DNA of 64,000 nt from Minisyncoccota bacterium (GTDB taxonomy: Bacteria; Patescibacteriota; Minisyncoccia; Phycocordibacterales; UBA9973), in contig JAGOUR010000004.1 of assembly GCA_018061145.1 (NCBI GenBank), forward strand, positions 10,625 through 74,624. The letters run 5' to 3'. Each line of letters begins with the position of its first letter. The first letter of the stretch is position 1. Made by a program: the position numbers and the translations under genes. Positions 5,045 through 58,574 of the stretch are shown piece by piece. The notes beneath the pieces are model-generated. The model searched no databases. It was not told the origin of the DNA and saw only the letters and a program-made list of their open reading frames with translations.

Positions 5045-5644
5045 TTATCCTATGACTTCCACTAGAGTACCACGTCGTCCAGGGATTGCGCCTTTAATGA
5101 GTAATTGGTTGTTTTCAACATCTACGCCGACCACTTTCAAGTTGCGAACTGTGATACGATCACCACCCATGCGTCCCGCCATGCGCATACCTTTTGGTAC
5201 ACGATTACGTAGACCTCCACCGATAGAACCTGGCTCACGCTCAGAGTGCTTCTGACCGTGTGTACGAGGACCTCCGGCAAAGCCGTGACGCTTCACTACA
5301 CCTTGAAAACCTTTTCCTTTTGATACACCTGATACGATAACTGTATCCCCTTTAGCAAAACTGCTAACAGTGATACGATCACCGACTGCGATTTCTTCGA
5401 TATCGCGAAACTCTCGAAGATGCTTGTAAGCACCCTCCTTAACATGGCCCAGGTGTGCTTTTGTCGCACGCTCCTTTTTCTGATCGAGGAATGCTACTTG
5501 AACAGCAGTATAGCCATCAGATTCTGGAGTCTTCACTTGAGTAACGACAATAGGACCCGCATCGATAACCGTTGCTGGAACCACTGTACCGTCCTCTTCG
5601 AAGAACTGCACCATATTCTGTTTTTTACCTAGAATAAATTTCAT
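5045..5644 (-). CDS. rplC: 50S ribosomal protein L3
   Basis: L3 family (KGKGFQGVVKRHGF). Confidence 0.9.
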   Translation of the reverse strand: MKFILGKKQNMVQFFEEDGTVVPATVIDAGPIVVTQVKTPESDGYTAVQVAFLDQKKERATKAHLGHVKEGAYKHLREFRDIEEIAVGDRITVSSFAKGDTVIVSGVSKGKGFQGVVKRHGFAGGPRTHGQKHSEREPGSIGGGLRNRVPKGMRMAGRMGGDRITVRNLKVVGVDVENNQLLIKGAIPGRRGTLVEVIG

Positions 5645-26484: not shown

Positions 26485-26643
26485 GGTAGAATCGGCTATT
26501 TTATGGTCACAAATAATTTTTCGCCGCCGCTCCAAATTTTCGCGACCCCACCTCGTGGTTTTGCATGCTTGCAAAACATCACTCCGGCTCACGAAAACGA
26601 GAAAGAGCACTTAAATAGTGCTCTTTCTAAACTCACGTTTTTG

Positions 26644-26714
26644 TGCGGGATAGGAGAATCGAACTCCTGTCTCATCCTTGGCAAGGACGTGTTCTACCAC
26701 TAAACCAATCCCGC
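26644..26714 (-). tRNA. tRNA-Gly (anticodon GCC), CCA not encoded
   Basis: Hand-folded cloverleaf: acceptor gcgggat/atcccgc, anticodon arm cgtcc-ttGCCaa-ggatg, T-arm aggag-ttcgatt-ctcct. Confidence 0.85.
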
Positions 26715-26796
26715 ATTTGCCTATTATATTTTAAAATATATGGCTTTGTTGACACGATAAACCACTAAACCAATCCCGCATACGAAACCGAAACTG

Positions 26797-26867
26797 TCGG
26801 GGTGCAGGGAATTGAACCCTGTTCTCACGGTCCCAAACCGCGTATACTACCGGTGTACTACACCCCG
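26797..26867 (-). tRNA. tRNA-Pro (anticodon UGG), CCA not encoded
   Basis: Acceptor cggggtg/caccccg, anticodon arm cgcgg-ttTGGga-ccgtg (G37), T-arm caggg-ttcaatt-ccctg. Confidence 0.8.
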
Positions 26868-26914
26868 AAACGTCTTTCTATAGTAGCATATTTTAAACAA
26901 AAAACAATGCCCTC

Positions 26915-27322
26915 CTAAAGTATTATATTCTCCATCCTTTTTACTCTCGCTTTTCTACTCTCCAGATCCAGATAAACCACCAATATATCAAATTGCCATT
27001 CCCTATTCCCTATCCTGTTATGTATTAGATATGTCTGTATAACTCGAGCCAGTCTCTGGCGCTTCCACATGTGGACATTCTCTTCTGGTCTGAACCACCC
27101 ACTTTTAGTTTCATGTGTAACATAATCCAGATCTGATACAGATTTTGCCTTTACTTCTATAAAATATAGAGAATTCCCCTTTTCAGCTATTATATCTACC
27201 TCCCCCCATTTCTTTGTATAGTTGCGCTCCAATATAATAAAGCCATGTTTCCCGAGAAACATACAGGCTACATCTTCGCCCAATTCCCCTATTTTTTGAG
27301 TATTTGAAGTAAATTTCTTCAT
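26915..27322 (-). CDS. yraN: YraN/UPF0102 family endonuclease (PD-(D/E)xK fold)
   Basis: GELGEDVACMFLGKHGFIILERNYTKKWGEVDIIAEKGNSLYFIEVKAK matches the UPF0102 signature (GE.GE..A...L...G..IL.RN.R...GEIDII..FVEVK). Confidence 0.7.
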   Translation of the reverse strand: MKKFTSNTQKIGELGEDVACMFLGKHGFIILERNYTKKWGEVDIIAEKGNSLYFIEVKAKSVSDLDYVTHETKSGWFRPEENVHMWKRQRLARVIQTYLIHNRIGNREWQFDILVVYLDLESRKARVKRMENIIL

Positions 27323-27440
27323 CCCGTTAGAGATAGGAAGTCCTTAGACTTCCGTATCTTACTTATTAATAGTAAACAATACAAATTTATCTATATACTA
27401 TATATTATAATTAAAATAAAAACGAAACATCTCTAACGGG
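27323..27440. repeat. 118-bp MITE-like leader cassette with CCCGTTAGAGAT / ATCTCTAACGGG terminal inverted repeats, abutting the yraN start codon
   Basis: Termini at 27323-27334 and 27429-27440. Internal hairpin ggaagtc-cttag-gacttcc. Near-identical 40-nt block shared with the element at 35790..35905. Confidence 0.65.
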
Positions 27441-27815
27441 ATTCATATTGTTACATGTGTAACTAATAAAGTGTGCCACGTGAAACGTTTTTCTATTTAT
27501 TAGACATCCAAACCATTATATAATATGTCTTTCACTTAAATAGCTTGATAAATAATGGTATTATAGATATTGTCTTATCTCTTTCGTGTATGACTTTATC
27601 CAATAAAAGCCTGTCTTATAAACAATACACACATAGTTATCCACATAAATGCTTATTTTGTAGGGGATTAACCTGGGGATAAAGGGACAAATCAAGGACG
27701 TCCATTAAAATAGATCTAGTAAATTTTGTGGTCAGGCATAATTTTCTGCTGAAAATTTGCACGACCCTGGCTCACGTCGTCACGTTCCACCTCGCACAAA
27801 ATGTCCGACATTTTG

Positions 27816-27887
27816 TGCGCCTGGCAGGAATCGAACCCACATCATCGATTCCGAAGATCGATGTCCTATCCATTGAACGACAGGCGC
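27816..27887 (-). tRNA. tRNA-Arg (anticodon UCG), CCA not encoded
   Basis: Acceptor gcgcctg/caggcgc, anticodon arm tcgat-ctTCGga-atcga, T-arm gtggg-ttcgatt-cctgc (two G-U pairs). Confidence 0.75.
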
Positions 27888-28024
27888 ATAGCAATACATA
27901 TATTATACATAAATGTTGCACAATTACAAATAATCCTTTATTTTAAAGGATTATTCCCAGATAATTGCATTTTAAATAAAAAAATACTATAATCTATCTA
28001 TTGTTTAATTGACAATATACATAT

Positions 28025-28095
28025 GCGGGATTAGTTTAGTGGTAGAACTACAGTTTTCCAAACTGTTGGCAGGCGTTCGATTCGCCTATCCCGCA
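28025..28095 (+). tRNA. tRNA-Gly (anticodon UCC), CCA not encoded
   Basis: Acceptor gcgggat/atcccgc, anticodon arm acagt-ttTCCaa-actgt, T-arm aggcg-ttcgatt-cgcct. Confidence 0.85.
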
Positions 28096-28116
28096 CAGTA
28101 TTTATTAACCGTATTT

Positions 28117-50543: not shown

Positions 50544-51317
50544 TTAAATCTCTTTTTCTAATCTTTTAGCTTCGGACCAGGCAAGCTCGTAGATCTTTTT
50601 CATAGCATCGGCGATCTCGGCGGATTCTATTATAATACCTAGCTTTTCGCGCCAAGAGGCGATCATGACCTTGTTATCATAGATATTTATCTCTGGGTGG
50701 AAACCAAAACTATCAGGAACTATTACAGATTCACGCTTCTCTTCTTTATCAAGACTAGCTCGCTCGCGAGCTTCAGGTGAATCTGGGAAAATGGCACGGA
50801 TAGGAATTCCTTTTTTTGCACGCCTCTTGTAATACTCAGGGAAATAATGGGGAAGTGTCGGCTGGATATCCTCGACACTGGCATAGGCAAGAATTGTCTC
50901 ACTAGAGCTGAGAGTATCTTCATACACCTTCTGCAGTCCATCCTTTCCCTCATAAAATTTTATCTTTGGCCTATTCTCTTTATTGTGAATAGATACCAGC
51001 TCAGGAATGATCTCTTTGGCCTGCTTAAGTGCGCTCGTATATTCAGAGATCTTCTCCTCTAATATCTGCTCTATATTTTCAGGGGATTCCGCTGTGTATT
51101 CCTGCTTTGGTTCTTTGCCCGAGGTACGCACGAGCTTTTTTAATTCTAGAGATGCTAATACATGGTATGCAGTAGGGCGGTTGATACCAGCTTTGCGGGC
51201 AATCTGCGTAACGGTACCTTTTCCCAATTCCAGTAGAGCCAAATAGACTTCAATTTCTTTCTCCGAAAAGCCAATAGAAAGTAGGCTTTTTTTGATATCA
51301 AATGATGTGTTTTCCAT
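50544..51317 (-). CDS. TrmB-family transcriptional regulator
   Basis: N-terminal winged HTH EIEVYLALLELGKGTVTQIARKAGINRPTAYHVL. TrmB-like C-terminal domain. Confidence 0.7.
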   Translation of the reverse strand: MENTSFDIKKSLLSIGFSEKEIEVYLALLELGKGTVTQIARKAGINRPTAYHVLASLELKKLVRTSGKEPKQEYTAESPENIEQILEEKISEYTSALKQAKEIIPELVSIHNKENRPKIKFYEGKDGLQKVYEDTLSSSETILAYASVEDIQPTLPHYFPEYYKRRAKKGIPIRAIFPDSPEARERASLDKEEKRESVIVPDSFGFHPEINIYDNKVMIASWREKLGIIIESAEIADAMKKIYELAWSEAKRLEKEI

Positions 51318-51548
51318 CCCATTAAAAAATTAAAATAATAATGTTTATTTACAGTTTCCCGTAAGTCGATTTTCTAACGGGACAAGTATATTCATTGTAT
51401 TCCAAGCAATATATTTTGTCAATCTATATCAACAAAATTATTTAAATCTATAAAACACCCTGTTTTACAAGATTAAAATTAAAGAAATTAGTTCTGTATG
51501 CTTGACAAATATTGCATGCCTGATATTATATATATAAAATTTTAAAAC

Positions 51549-53771: not shown

Positions 53772-54185
53772 TTATTTATTGTATTGTGCTCGGATCTGCG
53801 CACCAGCGATACCATCCACGGGCAAACCCTTTGAGGCTTGGAATTCACGGAGAGCTTTATCTGTCAGTGGGCCAAAGTTGTTTGTCGCTTTGTGACTAGC
53901 CAATTCTTTTGCAGCAGAACCGACGGATTTCTTTATTAAAAATTTCTGGAGAGTCGAGACATCCGCACCCTTCATACCTAGCTTCAAATTACGAACAGTG
54001 GCCTTTTTTGATTTAGCTTTTGCTTTTGGCTTTGCTGAATGGGGCGCAGTACCTACTGTGAATTTGGTTGGAGTAGGGATAAATCTTTCTGCTGAAACAA
54101 GAAGAGGTGAAACTCCTGCTAAAAATGAAGCGAATATAAAAATTGTAAATATTTTTTTAATCATTTGGTTGGAAGTCACGTGCAT
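53772..54185 (-). CDS. Peptidoglycan-binding-domain (PG_binding_1) secreted protein; start at 54164 is possible
   Basis: Signal peptide. C-terminal LKLGMKGADVSTLQKFL...LTDKALREFQASKGLPVDGIAG matches the PGBD fold. Confidence 0.6.
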   Translation of the reverse strand: MHVTSNQMIKKIFTIFIFASFLAGVSPLLVSAERFIPTPTKFTVGTAPHSAKPKAKAKSKKATVRNLKLGMKGADVSTLQKFLIKKSVGSAAKELASHKATNNFGPLTDKALREFQASKGLPVDGIAGAQIRAQYNK

Positions 54186-55257
54186 TTACTTTTAATCCTA
54201 GGTATGGATTGCTCTGTGGGCCATGGAAACCGATATGAGTATGTGGGCCTGTAGATTTACCAGTATTACCGACATATCCTATAATCTCACCCCTCTTTAC
54301 CTTATCCCCAGGTTGTACGAGAACTTTGCTCATATGACCAAATATAGCTTGTCTACCATCTGTAAAGTCGATAACCACATAAAGACCATACCCACCATTG
54401 TATCCAGTAGGGCGGGCAATCAAGACAGATCCATCATATATAGCATATATAGGTGTACCCTTTGGTGCGGCAAAGTCATAAGCATTGTCTCCGTGTAGAC
54501 CTTGAGATATGCGCCCCGTACCTCTAGGGAATGGCCAGATATAGCTACTTGAGATTGAGCCGTCTGGCTGCCCATCAGAAGCAGGCTCTTCTTTTGGCTC
54601 TTCGACTATATTTTTAACCTCTTTTACGGGGACAGCTTCTACTACGACGGGTGCTGGGGCAGGAGTTGGAGCTTGTGCTACTAGCTTTTTAGGCTGTTCG
54701 ATTAACTTTTCTGAAGAAGTAGTCTTTTTCTCTGGTGTTTTTGAAGTCACCTTGATTTCTGGAGCTTTTTCAGCCTTTTCAGTAACCTTTGGTACATTCA
54801 CAGGGATGATAGATAGGACTTGACCCACTTTTAGGACTTCGCCCTTCTTTAAGCTGGCAGCATAAACTACTGAATCCTTGGAAACCTTTAATTTTCGAGC
54901 GATGCCATCTATTGTATCTCCCTTTTTAACTACATAATTACTAATTTTCTCTGTTGTAGCGTATTTTTGAACATCATTGTTGCCGAGGAAGCCCTCTGTG
55001 GCCTCTATAGCCTGCTCACCGACAGTCCCTTGACTTAAATCTGTAACTGTATTCTTTAGTTCTGGGGTTAGATTTGATTCAAGAAGAGGGACTGTTTGCG
55101 AGTTGTGGGGCATATCACCGGTAGACTCGGGAACAACAGACGCATAGGTATCTGACCCTACAATAGCACTAAAGACATCCCCAAAAAAGCTAGCAGAGGC
55201 AGTACTAGGAGCCAGTGATACCGACAGAACAAGGGCCAAAGAAAAACAAGCTTTCAT
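54157..55257 (-). CDS. Secreted LysM-domain M23 (LytM-type) peptidoglycan endopeptidase
   Basis: Signal peptide from MKACFSLALVLSVSLAPSTASA (start 55257). LysM YVVKKGDTIDGIARKL. M23 motifs HGDNAYDF...GNTGKSTGPHTHIGF. Confidence 0.8.
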   Translation of the reverse strand: MKACFSLALVLSVSLAPSTASASFFGDVFSAIVGSDTYASVVPESTGDMPHNSQTVPLLESNLTPELKNTVTDLSQGTVGEQAIEATEGFLGNNDVQKYATTEKISNYVVKKGDTIDGIARKLKVSKDSVVYAASLKKGEVLKVGQVLSIIPVNVPKVTEKAEKAPEIKVTSKTPEKKTTSSEKLIEQPKKLVAQAPTPAPAPVVVEAVPVKEVKNIVEEPKEEPASDGQPDGSISSSYIWPFPRGTGRISQGLHGDNAYDFAAPKGTPIYAIYDGSVLIARPTGYNGGYGLYVVIDFTDGRQAIFGHMSKVLVQPGDKVKRGEIIGYVGNTGKSTGPHTHIGFHGPQSNPYLGLKVNARDFQPND

Positions 55258-55472
55258 AGTAAAAGCTTTATTTTGCAAGGCTATTTGGGGAAAATTGGCT
55301 TTCTGCTCTAGGAGCTCGTGGCGCAGATTTTCCTTTTTAGAGAAAAATGATTGCATAAGAAATGTGGGCGTACGGACAGGCGGTCATCTGAGGGAAATTA
55401 TCCACTATTCTGTATTGCAGGGGTATATTCCCCCTGTCTATATATGGTACCGCAGGGGGTATATGTAGTCAA

Positions 55473-55504
55473 CCATAGTTATGCACATATGTGCATAACT
55501 ATGG
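55473..55504. promoter_or_regulatory. 32-bp perfect palindrome CCATAGTTATGCACATATGTGCATAACTATGG (candidate operator)
   Basis: Exact reverse-complement symmetry. Lies in the divergent intergenic region between the M23 peptidase gene and the 989-aa gene. Confidence 0.5.
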
Positions 55505-55604
55505 GAAAACATAGGCACCGAGAATGGGGGTATTTTCTTTGACAACACACAACTTAATATTGTAAAATATAGGTACTTTTAATATTAAAACTTACAAACA
55601 TATT

Positions 55605-58574
55605 ATGTCAGCACCACACGGACACGGAGCACCTGGGCATTCAATACCAAAGGCGCCCCCAATGGAACCAACAACAGATAGCAAAACTATTGAGAGGAGA
55701 GCTCTCATACACAAACTTGACGACGCAGATGCAGGAGCTAGAGGACGAATACTATCAGGAACTTTAAGTCCCGAAGCAGATGCAACTGCAAGAAAAACAA
55801 TTCTAGAAAACAGAGAAAAGAGAGCAGACATACTAGATGAAGAAAAAAAGGCAAATGAATTTGTAAAAAATCTGATAGAGAAAAAAAAGTCACTAAAAAC
55901 AAAGATTGATAATTTACATAAAAATATCAATGAATATAAATATCGTGATGGTTTTAAGGATGCCCTCCAACATGAACTGGATCTAGCTCATAATGATTTA
56001 CGAGAAGTTCAAGAAAACATAGAAAATAATGCTAAAAATGTACAGGACCATAAATTAAAAGAGAATTTAGATAATACAAGAAAAGAATACCTTGCGGAAT
56101 ACGAAAAACATGCAAAAAATTTAAAAAATAAAGTAGCAATAAAAAATGTAAAGACTAGACTAAGTAACATATATCAATCTACCGCAAATATTTTTCGGAA
56201 AGAGGATAACAAAAAAAATCTAAAGGGATACAAGTCAGTAGAGACATATGGAGACAAAAATCTTAGAGAGAAGAGGGCTCTATACGATGATGCGAGAGTT
56301 TTACTTGCACAAAATATGTATGAGAGAAAAGAAGAAGAATTAAATGCCTCTGGAATAGAAGCTAGTGAACAGATAAAAAAACTAAAATACTACAAAGCTA
56401 CCGAGATAATACAAAAAGTATACGTAGAAGAAAAAGCAAAAACAAGAGAAGCCATCAGCTCACTGGAGAGAACCAAGCTAGACAGACTCGGTCTTTGGTA
56501 CAGCAAACAACCCAGATGGAAAAAGGTAGCACTAGGAACTGCTCTTTTTGTTGGTGGTGGTTCAGCTTTTGCTGCTAGTATGATTGCAAAATATGGAATA
56601 GGTTGGTGTATTGCTGGTAAATTTGCAACAAGTTATGGTGTTGGGTATATCACAAATACAGCAACAGGGAAGGTGATTGATAGAATTCACAAAAAAGGTG
56701 ATAAAGATTTCAGAAATTCAATAGATAATGACAAGCTTGATTTATCGAGCAATTTTACAAGAGGTGATACTGATATGACACTCCTGGAATACGAGAGACA
56801 ACTCTCAATCATAGAAAGAAGGGAAAATGAAAAATTGCAAAAAAGGATGAGCGCAAAAATGTGGGCTGGGCTTGGTCTAGGAATAGGAGCAGGAGCATTG
56901 ACATACAACTTAATGGCAGACTGCACCTCTCCAACAACGAGAGAGATACCAATGACAAAAGGAGATCACTTTAAAGCACCGGCACCAGTTCAATTAGAAA
57001 AAACTCTCGATGAATTTGTCGTAAAAGCAGACAGGATAGAGACAGTACCTAAACCCCCAGCACCTATTAGTACAGGAGGGGATCCAGTAATGTTAAAATA
57101 CCCAGATCTAAATATCGACCAGACAGAGTTTAAAAATATGGAAGGGGGGCTAGCTACTACATCAGATTTCACTCCACATACTACAGCAGATGAATTCAAC
57201 CCAGGTAATTCAAATGCAGACCAAACACCTGCAGTAGAAAAACCAAAATACAATTTTGGAGATTATAATCCAGACGAAAGAAACCTCGACCAAGAGAACC
57301 CTGAATCTGGAGAGAGATTAGACCTACCAGAGACTCCAGGGGATGCAACAGAACCAAAAATAGGAGGTGGCACATCTGCAGAAAATACAAATACTGAATC
57401 CGGGCTCAATAATACTGCAGGCAAAGGGTTAAAAATGGACTACCATGAGACTCAGAAAATTCAAGAAAATCAATTTCAAAAAATAAAAAGTCAGATAGGT
57501 AATGAAGAGTATGAAAAGCTGATAAAAACACTAGACAATAATATGGCATTGTATAAGACAGATATCAACGAATTAAGGACAATCGCCGTAGGAGAAAATA
57601 GAGATGAATCTTTCTCGAGAGAGCTAGCCCTGAATAATGCTAGGGAACAACTCAGAGAGCAGGCGGGATTAAAAGATGCAGTGTTTAACGACAGAGGCCC
57701 ATCACGAGTAATAACATCGCAACTACCAAATGGAGAATTCCGAACGATAGTAGTCCAAGCTGCACACCATGTAAACAATATAGAAGTTGACGACCTCTTT
57801 AATACAGAAAATATCCCAGTAACAGCAGAAGAGAACGTAAAAGCAATAATAAATCAATCAAATCAAAATGCAGAAAGATTTATGGCACTCTCTGGCACAG
57901 ATGAGGGTACGATGAAATCAATACTAACCCCAAAAGATAGTAATCATATAAGAATAGTTTCAGAAAGAACATCACCAGATTTAGCTAAAGCTAGAGAAAT
58001 GATCGTCAACGACAGGATGGCTCTGAACAAAGTTATGGGAGATGATTCAGTCTCTATGGTGGGAAACTCAATGGACAGAATCTTTAAAGATTCAAATGGA
58101 GATTATCATGTATACAGAATATACGAAATAAAAGACACAACAAATATCTCAGGGCAAGAAGGAGCAGTATCAGGGTCAGGTGGAGAGAGTTCGGAGATCA
58201 ACTACCAGAATGAAGAATATAAAGTTTCAAATATCGAATCAGGACCAACTGGCATAGAAAGTGAGACTAACCTTGCCATTGAAAATATAATAAAGGAAGG
58301 GAAATACAAGGATATAGTTAAAAACGTAGAAATGCTTGGTTATACATTTGAGGGGTCTCGCAGTGCAGATGTTACTGTTCTAAAATTCCTAGAATCTTAC
58401 AAGTCTGGTGAATACACATTAGCAATAGACTCAGCAGATGCTCCTACACATGATCTTGCGTCTCAAGCAATTAGCCAGAGACAAGGCTTCGTAAACACAG
58501 CAGAAAAAATGAATCTATGGAAAAAAACTGACAGTGGATATCATATGATTTCTATTCGTTTAATCAAAAAATAA
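55605..58574 (+). CDS. Large (989 aa) coiled-coil membrane protein, hypothetical
   Basis: ~300-aa K/E-rich coiled-coil N-region. Two Gly-rich TM hairpins (WKKVALGTALFVGGGSAFAASMIAKYGIGWCIAG; MWAGLGLGIGAGALTYNLMA). ~540-aa C-terminal region with no known domain. Confidence 0.45.
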   Translation: MSAPHGHGAPGHSIPKAPPMEPTTDSKTIERRALIHKLDDADAGARGRILSGTLSPEADATARKTILENREKRADILDEEKKANEFVKNLIEKKKSLKTKIDNLHKNINEYKYRDGFKDALQHELDLAHNDLREVQENIENNAKNVQDHKLKENLDNTRKEYLAEYEKHAKNLKNKVAIKNVKTRLSNIYQSTANIFRKEDNKKNLKGYKSVETYGDKNLREKRALYDDARVLLAQNMYERKEEELNASGIEASEQIKKLKYYKATEIIQKVYVEEKAKTREAISSLERTKLDRLGLWYSKQPRWKKVALGTALFVGGGSAFAASMIAKYGIGWCIAGKFATSYGVGYITNTATGKVIDRIHKKGDKDFRNSIDNDKLDLSSNFTRGDTDMTLLEYERQLSIIERRENEKLQKRMSAKMWAGLGLGIGAGALTYNLMADCTSPTTREIPMTKGDHFKAPAPVQLEKTLDEFVVKADRIETVPKPPAPISTGGDPVMLKYPDLNIDQTEFKNMEGGLATTSDFTPHTTADEFNPGNSNADQTPAVEKPKYNFGDYNPDERNLDQENPESGERLDLPETPGDATEPKIGGGTSAENTNTESGLNNTAGKGLKMDYHETQKIQENQFQKIKSQIGNEEYEKLIKTLDNNMALYKTDINELRTIAVGENRDESFSRELALNNAREQLREQAGLKDAVFNDRGPSRVITSQLPNGEFRTIVVQAAHHVNNIEVDDLFNTENIPVTAEENVKAIINQSNQNAERFMALSGTDEGTMKSILTPKDSNHIRIVSERTSPDLAKAREMIVNDRMALNKVMGDDSVSMVGNSMDRIFKDSNGDYHVYRIYEIKDTTNISGQEGAVSGSGGESSEINYQNEEYKVSNIESGPTGIESETNLAIENIIKEGKYKDIVKNVEMLGYTFEGSRSADVTVLKFLESYKSGEYTLAIDSADAPTHDLASQAISQRQGFVNTAEKMNLWKKTDSGYHMISIRLIKK

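Follow-up and report, generated by a model that had tools for sequence, protein, structure and literature searches.

A 32-bp perfect palindrome in a divergent promoter region of a Paceibacterota genome shares its core with a motif on DUF134/UPF0251 gene promoters of other phyla

A perfect palindrome of 32 bp is located at positions 55473-55504 of a 64,000-nucleotide stretch of DNA (contig JAGOUR010000004.1; the whole stretch is called the window below), which comes from a metagenome-assembled genome (MAG) of the Paceibacterota (candidate phyla radiation, CPR; Minisyncoccota). The palindrome lies between a minus-strand peptidoglycan endopeptidase gene and a plus-strand gene for a 989-aa membrane protein. 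The 20 bp at its centre exactly match a motif found, in other phyla, in the promoters of genes encoding helix-turn-helix (HTH) proteins of the DUF134/UPF0251 family (COG1342). In our estimation, the palindrome has an even chance of being the docking site of a homodimeric HTH regulator with DUF134/UPF0251 specificity. The two features concerned are:

55473..55504, no strand: 32-bp perfect palindrome, arms CCATAGTTATGCACAT and ATGTGCATAACTATGG, candidate operator
55479..55498, no strand: inner 20-mer TTATGCACATATGTGCATAA, identical to the DUF134/UPF0251 gene promoter motif of other phyla

The full sequence of the palindrome is CCATAGTTATGCACATATGTGCATAACTATGG. Its two 16-nt arms are 100% complementary and are joined with no spacer, exactly as the original prediction, made from the sequence of the window, had described them. 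When the window was shuffled 200 times, perfect palindromes without a spacer reached an arm of at most 12 nt, and an arm of 16 nt never arose (0/200). The palindrome is non-random, far beyond what would be expected by chance.

An exact match to the 20-mer was found in 65 metagenome contigs from JGI/ENA, with G+C contents ranging from 30 to 59%. In 54 of the 65, a match to a hidden Markov model (HMM) of DUF134, built from the proteins adjoining the 20-mer, begins no more than 250 nt from the site, typically 8-40 nt downstream of it and after a TTGACA box. Of the remaining contigs, L055 ends in a truncated MRPKK start, and a further two are cut at the site. Most of the contigs read TTGACA ... 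(ta)TTATGCACATATGTGCATAA ... ATGAGGCC(T)AAAAA(A), followed by a gene starting MRPKKTRW. The viral contigs scanned for the 20-mer gave 0 matches. The 18-bp core of the motif (TATGCACATATGTGCATA) was present in 68 species genomes of the GTDB collection (one genome per species), compared to ~9 expected from the collection size, and in 36 of these 68 a DUF134 gene stands at the site. Many of the latter belong to Omnitrophota, while others are MAGs of the Kiritimatiellia, Planctomycetes and Thermodesulfovibrionia types, among others. In total, the core was placed on the promoters of at least 91 DUF134 loci and five ArsR loci. The proposal that the palindrome is the operator of a dimeric transcription factor is therefore strongly supported, since its inner 20 bp form a motif carried by HTH gene promoters across phyla.

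The correspondence between the window site and the DUF134 promoter palindrome is complete over 20/20 bp, with a minimal core of TGCACATATGTGCA and perfect two-fold symmetry in both. The outermost bases are T..A in 27 of the 28 distinct DUF134-linked sites, which were selected by the 18-mer, and the window site is likewise T..A. With the DUF134 site of L068, the window palindrome shares a palindrome of 28-29 bp.

At a typical DUF134 locus, a distance of 26-33 nt separates TTGAC from the downstream 18-mer. A TATTAT -10 box ends in the first four bases of the 20-mer, and the start codon lies 8-40 nt past the site. This geometry is the textbook layout of an autorepressor. The downstream protein, of ~100 aa, matches Pfam DUF134 (PF02001, UPF0251) with E-values of 1e-21 to 1e-24, and has an HTH resembling sigma-70 region 4 as well as conserved cysteines (C11, C17 and a C-terminal GGCC). 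Four DUF134 genes were also chosen by protein similarity, independently of the motif. All four carry [AG]TGCACATATGTGC[AG] between TTGACA and the start codon, with outer bases that form a TATAAT box instead of TATTAT, and the exact 18-mer is present in none of them (0/4). For this reason the finding that the species-representative genome contains only one exact copy of the 18-mer is uninformative as to a cognate DUF134 gene elsewhere in the genome.

A second subgroup of DUF134 proteins (MPRPFKCRR..., MPRPFKCRRVRC...), encoded by further DUF134 genes within the same loci, has a different perfect palindrome of 20 bp, TTATTAGCATATGCTAATAA, which follows TTGACA-N17 and occupies the same promoter position:

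L005, 2885, minus strand: second-subgroup DUF134 palindrome
L009, 1897, minus strand: second-subgroup DUF134 palindrome
L049, 6440, plus strand: second-subgroup DUF134 palindrome
L125, 3885, plus strand: second-subgroup DUF134 palindrome

The recognition helix reads RQTFGN in the TTATTAGCATATGCTAATAA subgroup and RST(V/F)SR in the MRPKK subgroup, whose motif is of the GCAC type. Helix and palindrome thus change together between the subgroups, an argument for direct binding of these palindromes by DUF134 proteins.

The genes downstream of MRPKK-type DUF134 encode an ArsP_1 permease (the commonest neighbour), an Acr3-type SBF transporter or an ArsC of the low-molecular-weight (LMW) phosphatase type, and further an MIP channel (aquaglyceroporin), Thioredoxin_3, an S-adenosylmethionine (SAM) methyltransferase and a C_GCAxxG_C_C protein. 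Such loci include L051, L019, L013, L058, L010, L017 and L142-L145, with ~50 more. Judged by sequence, these operons are ars-like, with a theme of thiol and metalloid stress, and DUF134 seems to stand in for ArsR there. A DUF134 profile search gave 7,320 matches; among the best 120, those with a named source are from Omnitrophota, Elusimicrobia and bacteria of the Planctomycetes-Verrucomicrobia-Chlamydiae (PVC) group. A literature search in the library available returned no relevant paper on the function of DUF134/UPF0251/COG1342/PF02001 or on the core motif, and the association of motif and family described here is, as a sequence-level result, derived from this analysis. The PDB holds no DUF134 structure, and the only weak match there was to the HTH of DeoR-type regulators.

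The 20-mer was also observed upstream of Mrp/ApbC-type ATPase genes and of clusters with DUF5320, NifX-like and MinD-type 4Fe-4S ATPase genes:

L006/L077, 2533: 20-mer at Fe-S-related genes
L113, 5109: 20-mer at Fe-S-related genes
L038/L106, 351: 20-mer at Fe-S-related genes

The regulon of this operator class may therefore extend to Fe-S-related genes in some genomes. In high-G+C MAGs of Actinomycetota (66-71%; L075, L086, L091, L109, L119), the 18-mer is central in longer perfect palindromes, such as TCGATATATGCACATATGTGCATATATCGA, and no recognisable regulator gene adjoins these five sites. In L016 (~5325-5405) and L033 (1-85), the 20-mer stands at the apex of an inverted repeat of ~80 bp; this is possibly an assembly artefact, with the natural palindrome seeding a fold-back, or else a true long hairpin.

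The same core was found beside genes of other regulator families. In five loci of Clostridia it occurs as TCATATGCACATATGTGCATATGA, 8-35 nt upstream of ArsR/SmtB genes with the CVC metalloid-binding motif; the hosts include Youngiibacter, two Clostridiaceae MAGs and an Acetivibrionales MAG:

L090, 5367: ArsR-linked core site
L092, 584: ArsR-linked core site
L099, 1388: ArsR-linked core site
L135, 1094: ArsR-linked core site
L121, 5631: ArsR-linked core site

One operator core is thereby associated with two unrelated HTH families, DUF134 and ArsR. A third association comes from L057, a CPR-like contig in which two perfect palindromes of 36-38 bp with this core flank a gene with a PaaX_M domain adjoining mltG:

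L057, 2733-2770: perfect palindrome with the core
L057, 3369-3404: perfect palindrome with the core

The window site could accordingly be the operator of another family, namely of an ArsR/SmtB protein, of a PaaX-like winged-helix protein, or of the TrmB-family regulator encoded at 50544-51317, 4 kb from the palindrome. The identical 18-mer core upstream of the clostridial ArsR genes, the core-bearing palindromes around the L057 gene and the synteny of the TrmB-family gene with the site, both in the window and in the related assembly L004, all speak for this explanation, which we nevertheless regard as fairly unlikely. In common with the operators of ars operons controlled by ArsR/SmtB, the window site is a palindrome suited to a small homodimeric HTH repressor, and it contains the whole 18-bp core of the clostridial operator. 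Its flanking bases are T..A, whereas the clostridial sites have A..T (TCATATGCAC...GTGCATATGA). Unlike an ArsR operator, it lies upstream of the -35 boxes and not over the core promoter, and no ArsR homologue is encoded in the window (phmmer, two queries). The region upstream of the TrmB-like gene itself contains no similar palindrome.

For the PaaX-like protein, the likeness consists of long perfect palindromes (32-38 bp in the window, L057, L138 and L139), small-genome bacteria and cell-wall neighbours, and in the case of L057 also of a common core of 14-20 bp. The window differs in having one copy of the palindrome and no PaaX_M gene or homologue, while the cassette consists of two copies around a regulator gene. 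The L057 protein has 4 homologues in 5.8 billion proteins, 0 of them from the lineage of the window, and the homologues in L138 (~5962, ~6590) and L139 (around gene 94-672) are bracketed by repeats of unrelated sequence. The L057 match may be a coincidence drawn from a very large database, or the PaaX-like protein may be able to use the site. As a separate observation, the PaaX_M (Cas2-like) genes in CPR-like contigs each lie between two copies of one long inverted repeat whose sequence is specific to the homologue, and the neighbours of these cassettes are cell-wall genes, namely those for MltG (L057), an M23 peptidase (L138), FtsW and MurG.

Other known kinds of site were considered as well. 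A dif/Xer site is unlikely, as the arms are inverted relative to dif and the motif has other genomic associations. Spacing and sequence speak against boxes for NrdR, Fur, LexA and CRP.

A structural role of the palindrome was also considered, either as a cruciform that divergent transcription would extrude through negative supercoiling, or as a hairpin in the RNA of a longer transcript (terminator or roadblock). As single-stranded DNA the palindrome folds with -14.2 kcal/mol (z = -7.3), and it gives a strong hairpin as RNA as well. Moreover, of 89 distinct 20-mer sites, 15 are perfectly palindromic over at least 4 further bp with differing flanks, which is above chance. The cruciform raised in the original prediction is therefore physically possible, but nothing requires it. 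Four more perfect palindromes occur in the window. Their arms are 14-19 nt long, and all four have the shape of a bidirectional terminator and appear to be the house style of the source genome:

19031-19068, 34689-34718, 40006-40037 and 48254-48281: terminator-like palindromes of 28-38 bp, each an A-run, a G+C-rich stem and a T-run

Among the long palindromes of the window, only that at 55473 lacks the terminator shape and only that one lies in a divergent promoter region. It has no T- or A-runs, does not have the features of an intrinsic terminator and was not called in the terminator scan, and the genes beside it are divergent, not convergent. An Rfam scan at gathering and permissive thresholds returned tRNAs only, plus meaningless matches of miRNA models to the palindrome. 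Finally, the 20-bp sequence itself, beyond its pairing, is conserved across phyla, which points to base-specific recognition. A purely structural role is thus very improbable.

The palindrome could in addition be read as an inverted pair of DnaA boxes placing the promoters under the control of DnaA. The sequence TTATGCACA, present in both arms, fits the relaxed consensus TTATNCACA. In a half-site search of the 64 kb, which the original prediction had suggested, no second site was found (at most 3 mismatches allowed for the 16-mer and for the 14-mer, and at most 1 for the 10-mer). The sole near match to the half-site was 14/16 at 27631 and contains a perfect DnaA box; the related 16-mer is CATAGTTATCCACATA at 27627-27642, near the minimum of the cumulative GC skew of the window. 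Box-like 9-mers are not enriched in the window (23 vs 19.8 expected), and near the palindrome only its own two DnaA-like boxes and one 9-mer with 1 mismatch, at 55398, were found. In contrast to a DnaA-box cluster or origin, the site has a conserved unit of at least 20 bp, with neither a cluster nor a dnaA gene nearby. The identity to the DUF134-type motif spans 20-29 bp, far past a DnaA box, and elsewhere the motif tracks DUF134 and ArsR genes, not replication origins. Control by DnaA is scarcely probable at all. As regards the skew, its minimum at ~26-28 kb (26600-28100) falls in a tRNA-rich, largely non-coding region with a perfect DnaA box (27637-27645), a 1-mismatch box (27674) and a parS-like sequence, GTGCCACGTGAAACG (~27472), which is a possible replication origin region.

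The gene context of the palindrome was confirmed by Pfam, in agreement with the original prediction: genes for a LysM-M23 peptidase and a PG_binding_1 protein on the minus strand, and the 989-aa gene on the plus strand. The features of this locus are as follows:

53772..54185, minus strand: PG_binding_1 protein gene (Pfam), overlapping the end of the M23 gene and in the same operon
54157..55257, minus strand: peptidoglycan endopeptidase gene with LysM and Peptidase_M23 domains (Pfam); open reading frame (ORF) extendable to 55356
55258..55472, no strand: conserved non-coding block, probable M23 leader and promoter (alignment of relatives)
55418..55436, minus strand: hairpin CAGGGG(N7)CCCCTG, invariant in five relatives
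55420-55428 and 55456..55464, no strand: copies of GGGGTATAT, the latter within the predicted M23 promoter spacer
55444..55472, minus strand: predicted M23 gene promoter, TTGACT 55472-55467, 17 nt, TACCAT 55449-55444, start ~55437, 9/12 consensus
55506..55529, no strand: unconstrained 24-nt spacer between the palindrome and the 989-aa -35 region (alignment of relatives)
55539..55568, plus strand: predicted 989-aa gene promoter, TTGACA 55539-55544, 18 nt, TAAAAT 55563-55568, start ~55575, 11/12 consensus
55605..58574, plus strand: gene for a lineage-specific, hypervariable membrane protein of 989 aa, with no Pfam or NCBIfam match

Both promoters are predictions from a scan for the sigma-70-type consensus, and the function of the M23 promoter is presumed. 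The same type of promoter, TTGACA-17-TATTAT, occurs elsewhere in the window at 51503, upstream of another gene. The palindrome sits between the two predicted promoters, with its left end abutting the M23 -35 box and its right end 35 bp from the -35 box of the 989-aa gene. Relative to the predicted start sites, its centre is at about -51.5 for M23 and about -86.5 for the 989-aa gene; it is ~100 nt from the start codon of the latter and more than 115 nt from that of M23.

If the palindrome is bound by a DUF134-specificity regulator, as we favour, then the organism would be expected to have a DUF134-type protein that binds here. Such a protein would belong to the class with the N-terminus MRPKKTRW and the recognition helix RST(V/F)SR, which elsewhere heads operons of the arsenic/thiol-stress type and would bind TTATGCACATATGTGCATAA on its own promoter. 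Because the site abuts the -35 box of the M23/PG-binding promoter, repression by occlusion is the simplest outcome: a bound dimer would block sigma region 4 and repress this operon, and repression might be relieved upon modification of the regulator cysteines. The promoter of the 989-aa gene is 53 bp away centre to centre, i.e., about five helical turns and on the same face of the helix; it could be modulated from afar, and any such effect would have to be indirect. The co-regulation of an envelope module, suggested in the original prediction, stays hypothetical, as the site abuts only the M23 -35 box, lies 35 bp short of the other one, has no cognate regulator in the window, is a singleton in one narrow CPR lineage, and is missing from the locus of a distant homologue of the 989-aa protein.

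Conservation of the site was assessed in other assemblies, and the palindrome is kept in the syntenic loci of L001, L003, L004, L027, L047 and L118. In L003, the most diverged of them, 1 of the 32 positions of the palindrome differs from the window, in the outer left arm and uncompensated, compared to 5/213 in the block to its left (55260-55472) and 15/99 to its right. Both promoter hexamers of the 989-aa gene are invariant in five relatives including L003, while the bases between and around them vary. In L027, 55506-55529 is replaced by an unrelated sequence of identical length (24 nt), so that the spacing between palindrome and promoter is kept. Overall, the palindrome and both pairs of promoter hexamers are kept within the lineage and the adjacent spacer is free to vary. 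As far as can be judged from these alignments, the pattern fits constraint not only of the palindrome and the promoter hexamers but, unexpectedly, also of the entire block to the left. The latter (55258-55472) is far more conserved than the neighbouring coding sequence, and the signal-peptide region next to it is only 64% identical. It has no Rfam match, and the fold of the M23 leader is not significant (z = -0.7).

Several observations weigh against binding by a DUF134-specificity regulator. The left end of the DUF134 motif is normally part of a -10 box (TATTAT or TATAAT), with the gene 8-40 nt downstream, whereas the window site overlaps no -10 box or start site and lies upstream of both predicted -35 boxes. 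No DUF134 gene adjoins it, and no homologue was found in the 64-kb window (six-frame tblastn and HMM) or in the CPR loci L001-L004, L027, L047 and L118 (tblastn, HMM); extension past the window by means of its end genes revealed no new regulator. Searches of the window and of these CPR loci for ArsR and PaaX_M homologues were likewise negative. No ars gene is present near the palindrome and the flanking genes are not ars-like. Because the 18-mer core also accompanies ArsR in Clostridia and a PaaX-like gene in L057, it does not identify a regulator family uniquely. The motif is rare in CPR, with 1 Paceibacterota species among the 68 genomes carrying the 18-mer. The CPR relatives with the site are all close, and its conservation is weak evidence (Poisson p ~0.05 for the palindrome). 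Around the gene for P0004, a protein with distant homology to the 989-aa protein (27% identity), the neighbours are different and the palindrome is absent, so that the palindrome is lineage-specific.

Some of these observations agree with an orphan operator, i.e., a site, alone or with a promoter fragment, that was acquired by horizontal transfer from a DUF134/ars operon or remained when the regulator was lost, with no cognate protein and no regulatory role. Only one copy occurs in the window and one in the species-representative genome, and the site is restricted to one narrow lineage, outside the core promoters and with no regulator gene nearby; the sequence to its right also resembles the segment from the ribosome-binding site (RBS) to the start of DUF134 genes, with 86% identity over 44 nt (L005/L084), a match dominated by the 20-mer. 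A relic, however, should decay asymmetrically, and here 32/32 positions are symmetric, including 6 bp per arm beyond the 20-mer. The palindrome also changes less than the adjacent spacer. An orphan site is therefore improbable.

The start of the M23 gene bears on the extent of the intergenic region, which comprises 55258-55604 if the gene starts at 55257. Within the M23 ORF, a Met codon at 55257 is in frame and precedes a segment resembling a signal peptide (MKACFSLALVLSVSLAPSTASA), and in the 33 codons upstream of this Met the differences between relatives are mostly non-synonymous. On both grounds, the start is likely at 55257 rather than at 55356. Within the intergenic region, an 11-nt direct repeat had been proposed. 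The sequence caggggtatat is present at 55418-55428, but its other copy reads cagggggtatat, with one additional G. What repeats exactly is the 9-mer GGGGTATAT, starting at 55420 and 55456; being short and in two copies, it carries little weight alone. The hairpin predicted around the first copy is present (CAGGGG/CCCCTG, 55418-55436), and given the predicted start site it would form the extreme 5' end of the M23 mRNA.

The 989-aa gene diverges abruptly within the lineage. Between the window (55605-58574) and L004 (6001-9000), nucleotide identity is 92-100% through the promoter and drops to 30-54% (50-nt windows) from ~6 nt inside the coding sequence (55611 onward). The 989-aa proteins of the relatives (L004; L003 3048-6194) are only 42-70% identical, compared to 88-98% identity of the flanking genes at the DNA level. 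The 989-aa gene is invariably followed by a DUF5663-like gene of 102 aa.

For the window itself, the outcome is modest and amounts to a predicted binding site for a transcription factor between divergent promoters of a CPR bacterium. Regulators are very few in the CPR and mapped regulatory sites almost absent, and a defined operator before a cell-wall hydrolase would, if true, be a rare concrete handle on the control of envelope remodelling in an episymbiont. The wider lead is an exact DNA motif tied to a widespread family whose function has not been described (DUF134/UPF0251; over 7,000 clusters matched), which was found at the head of ars-like operons. Since each of its two paralogue groups combines its own recognition helix with its own palindrome, DUF134 function is directly testable, and the pairs provide a ready test of specificity. 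In its broadest form, which we put forward tentatively and as possible but short of probable, DUF134/UPF0251 proteins would be cross-phylum autorepressors of metalloid and thiol stress, with a near-invariant operator (TGCACATATGTGCA within TTATGCACATATGTGCATAA), a specificity set by the helix (RST-x-SR for GCAC, RQT-x-GN for TAGC) and a core shared with clostridial ArsR; in one Paceibacterota lineage, the operon of a peptidoglycan hydrolase, perhaps together with a hypervariable surface protein, may have been wired into this system through a stand-alone 32-bp operator.

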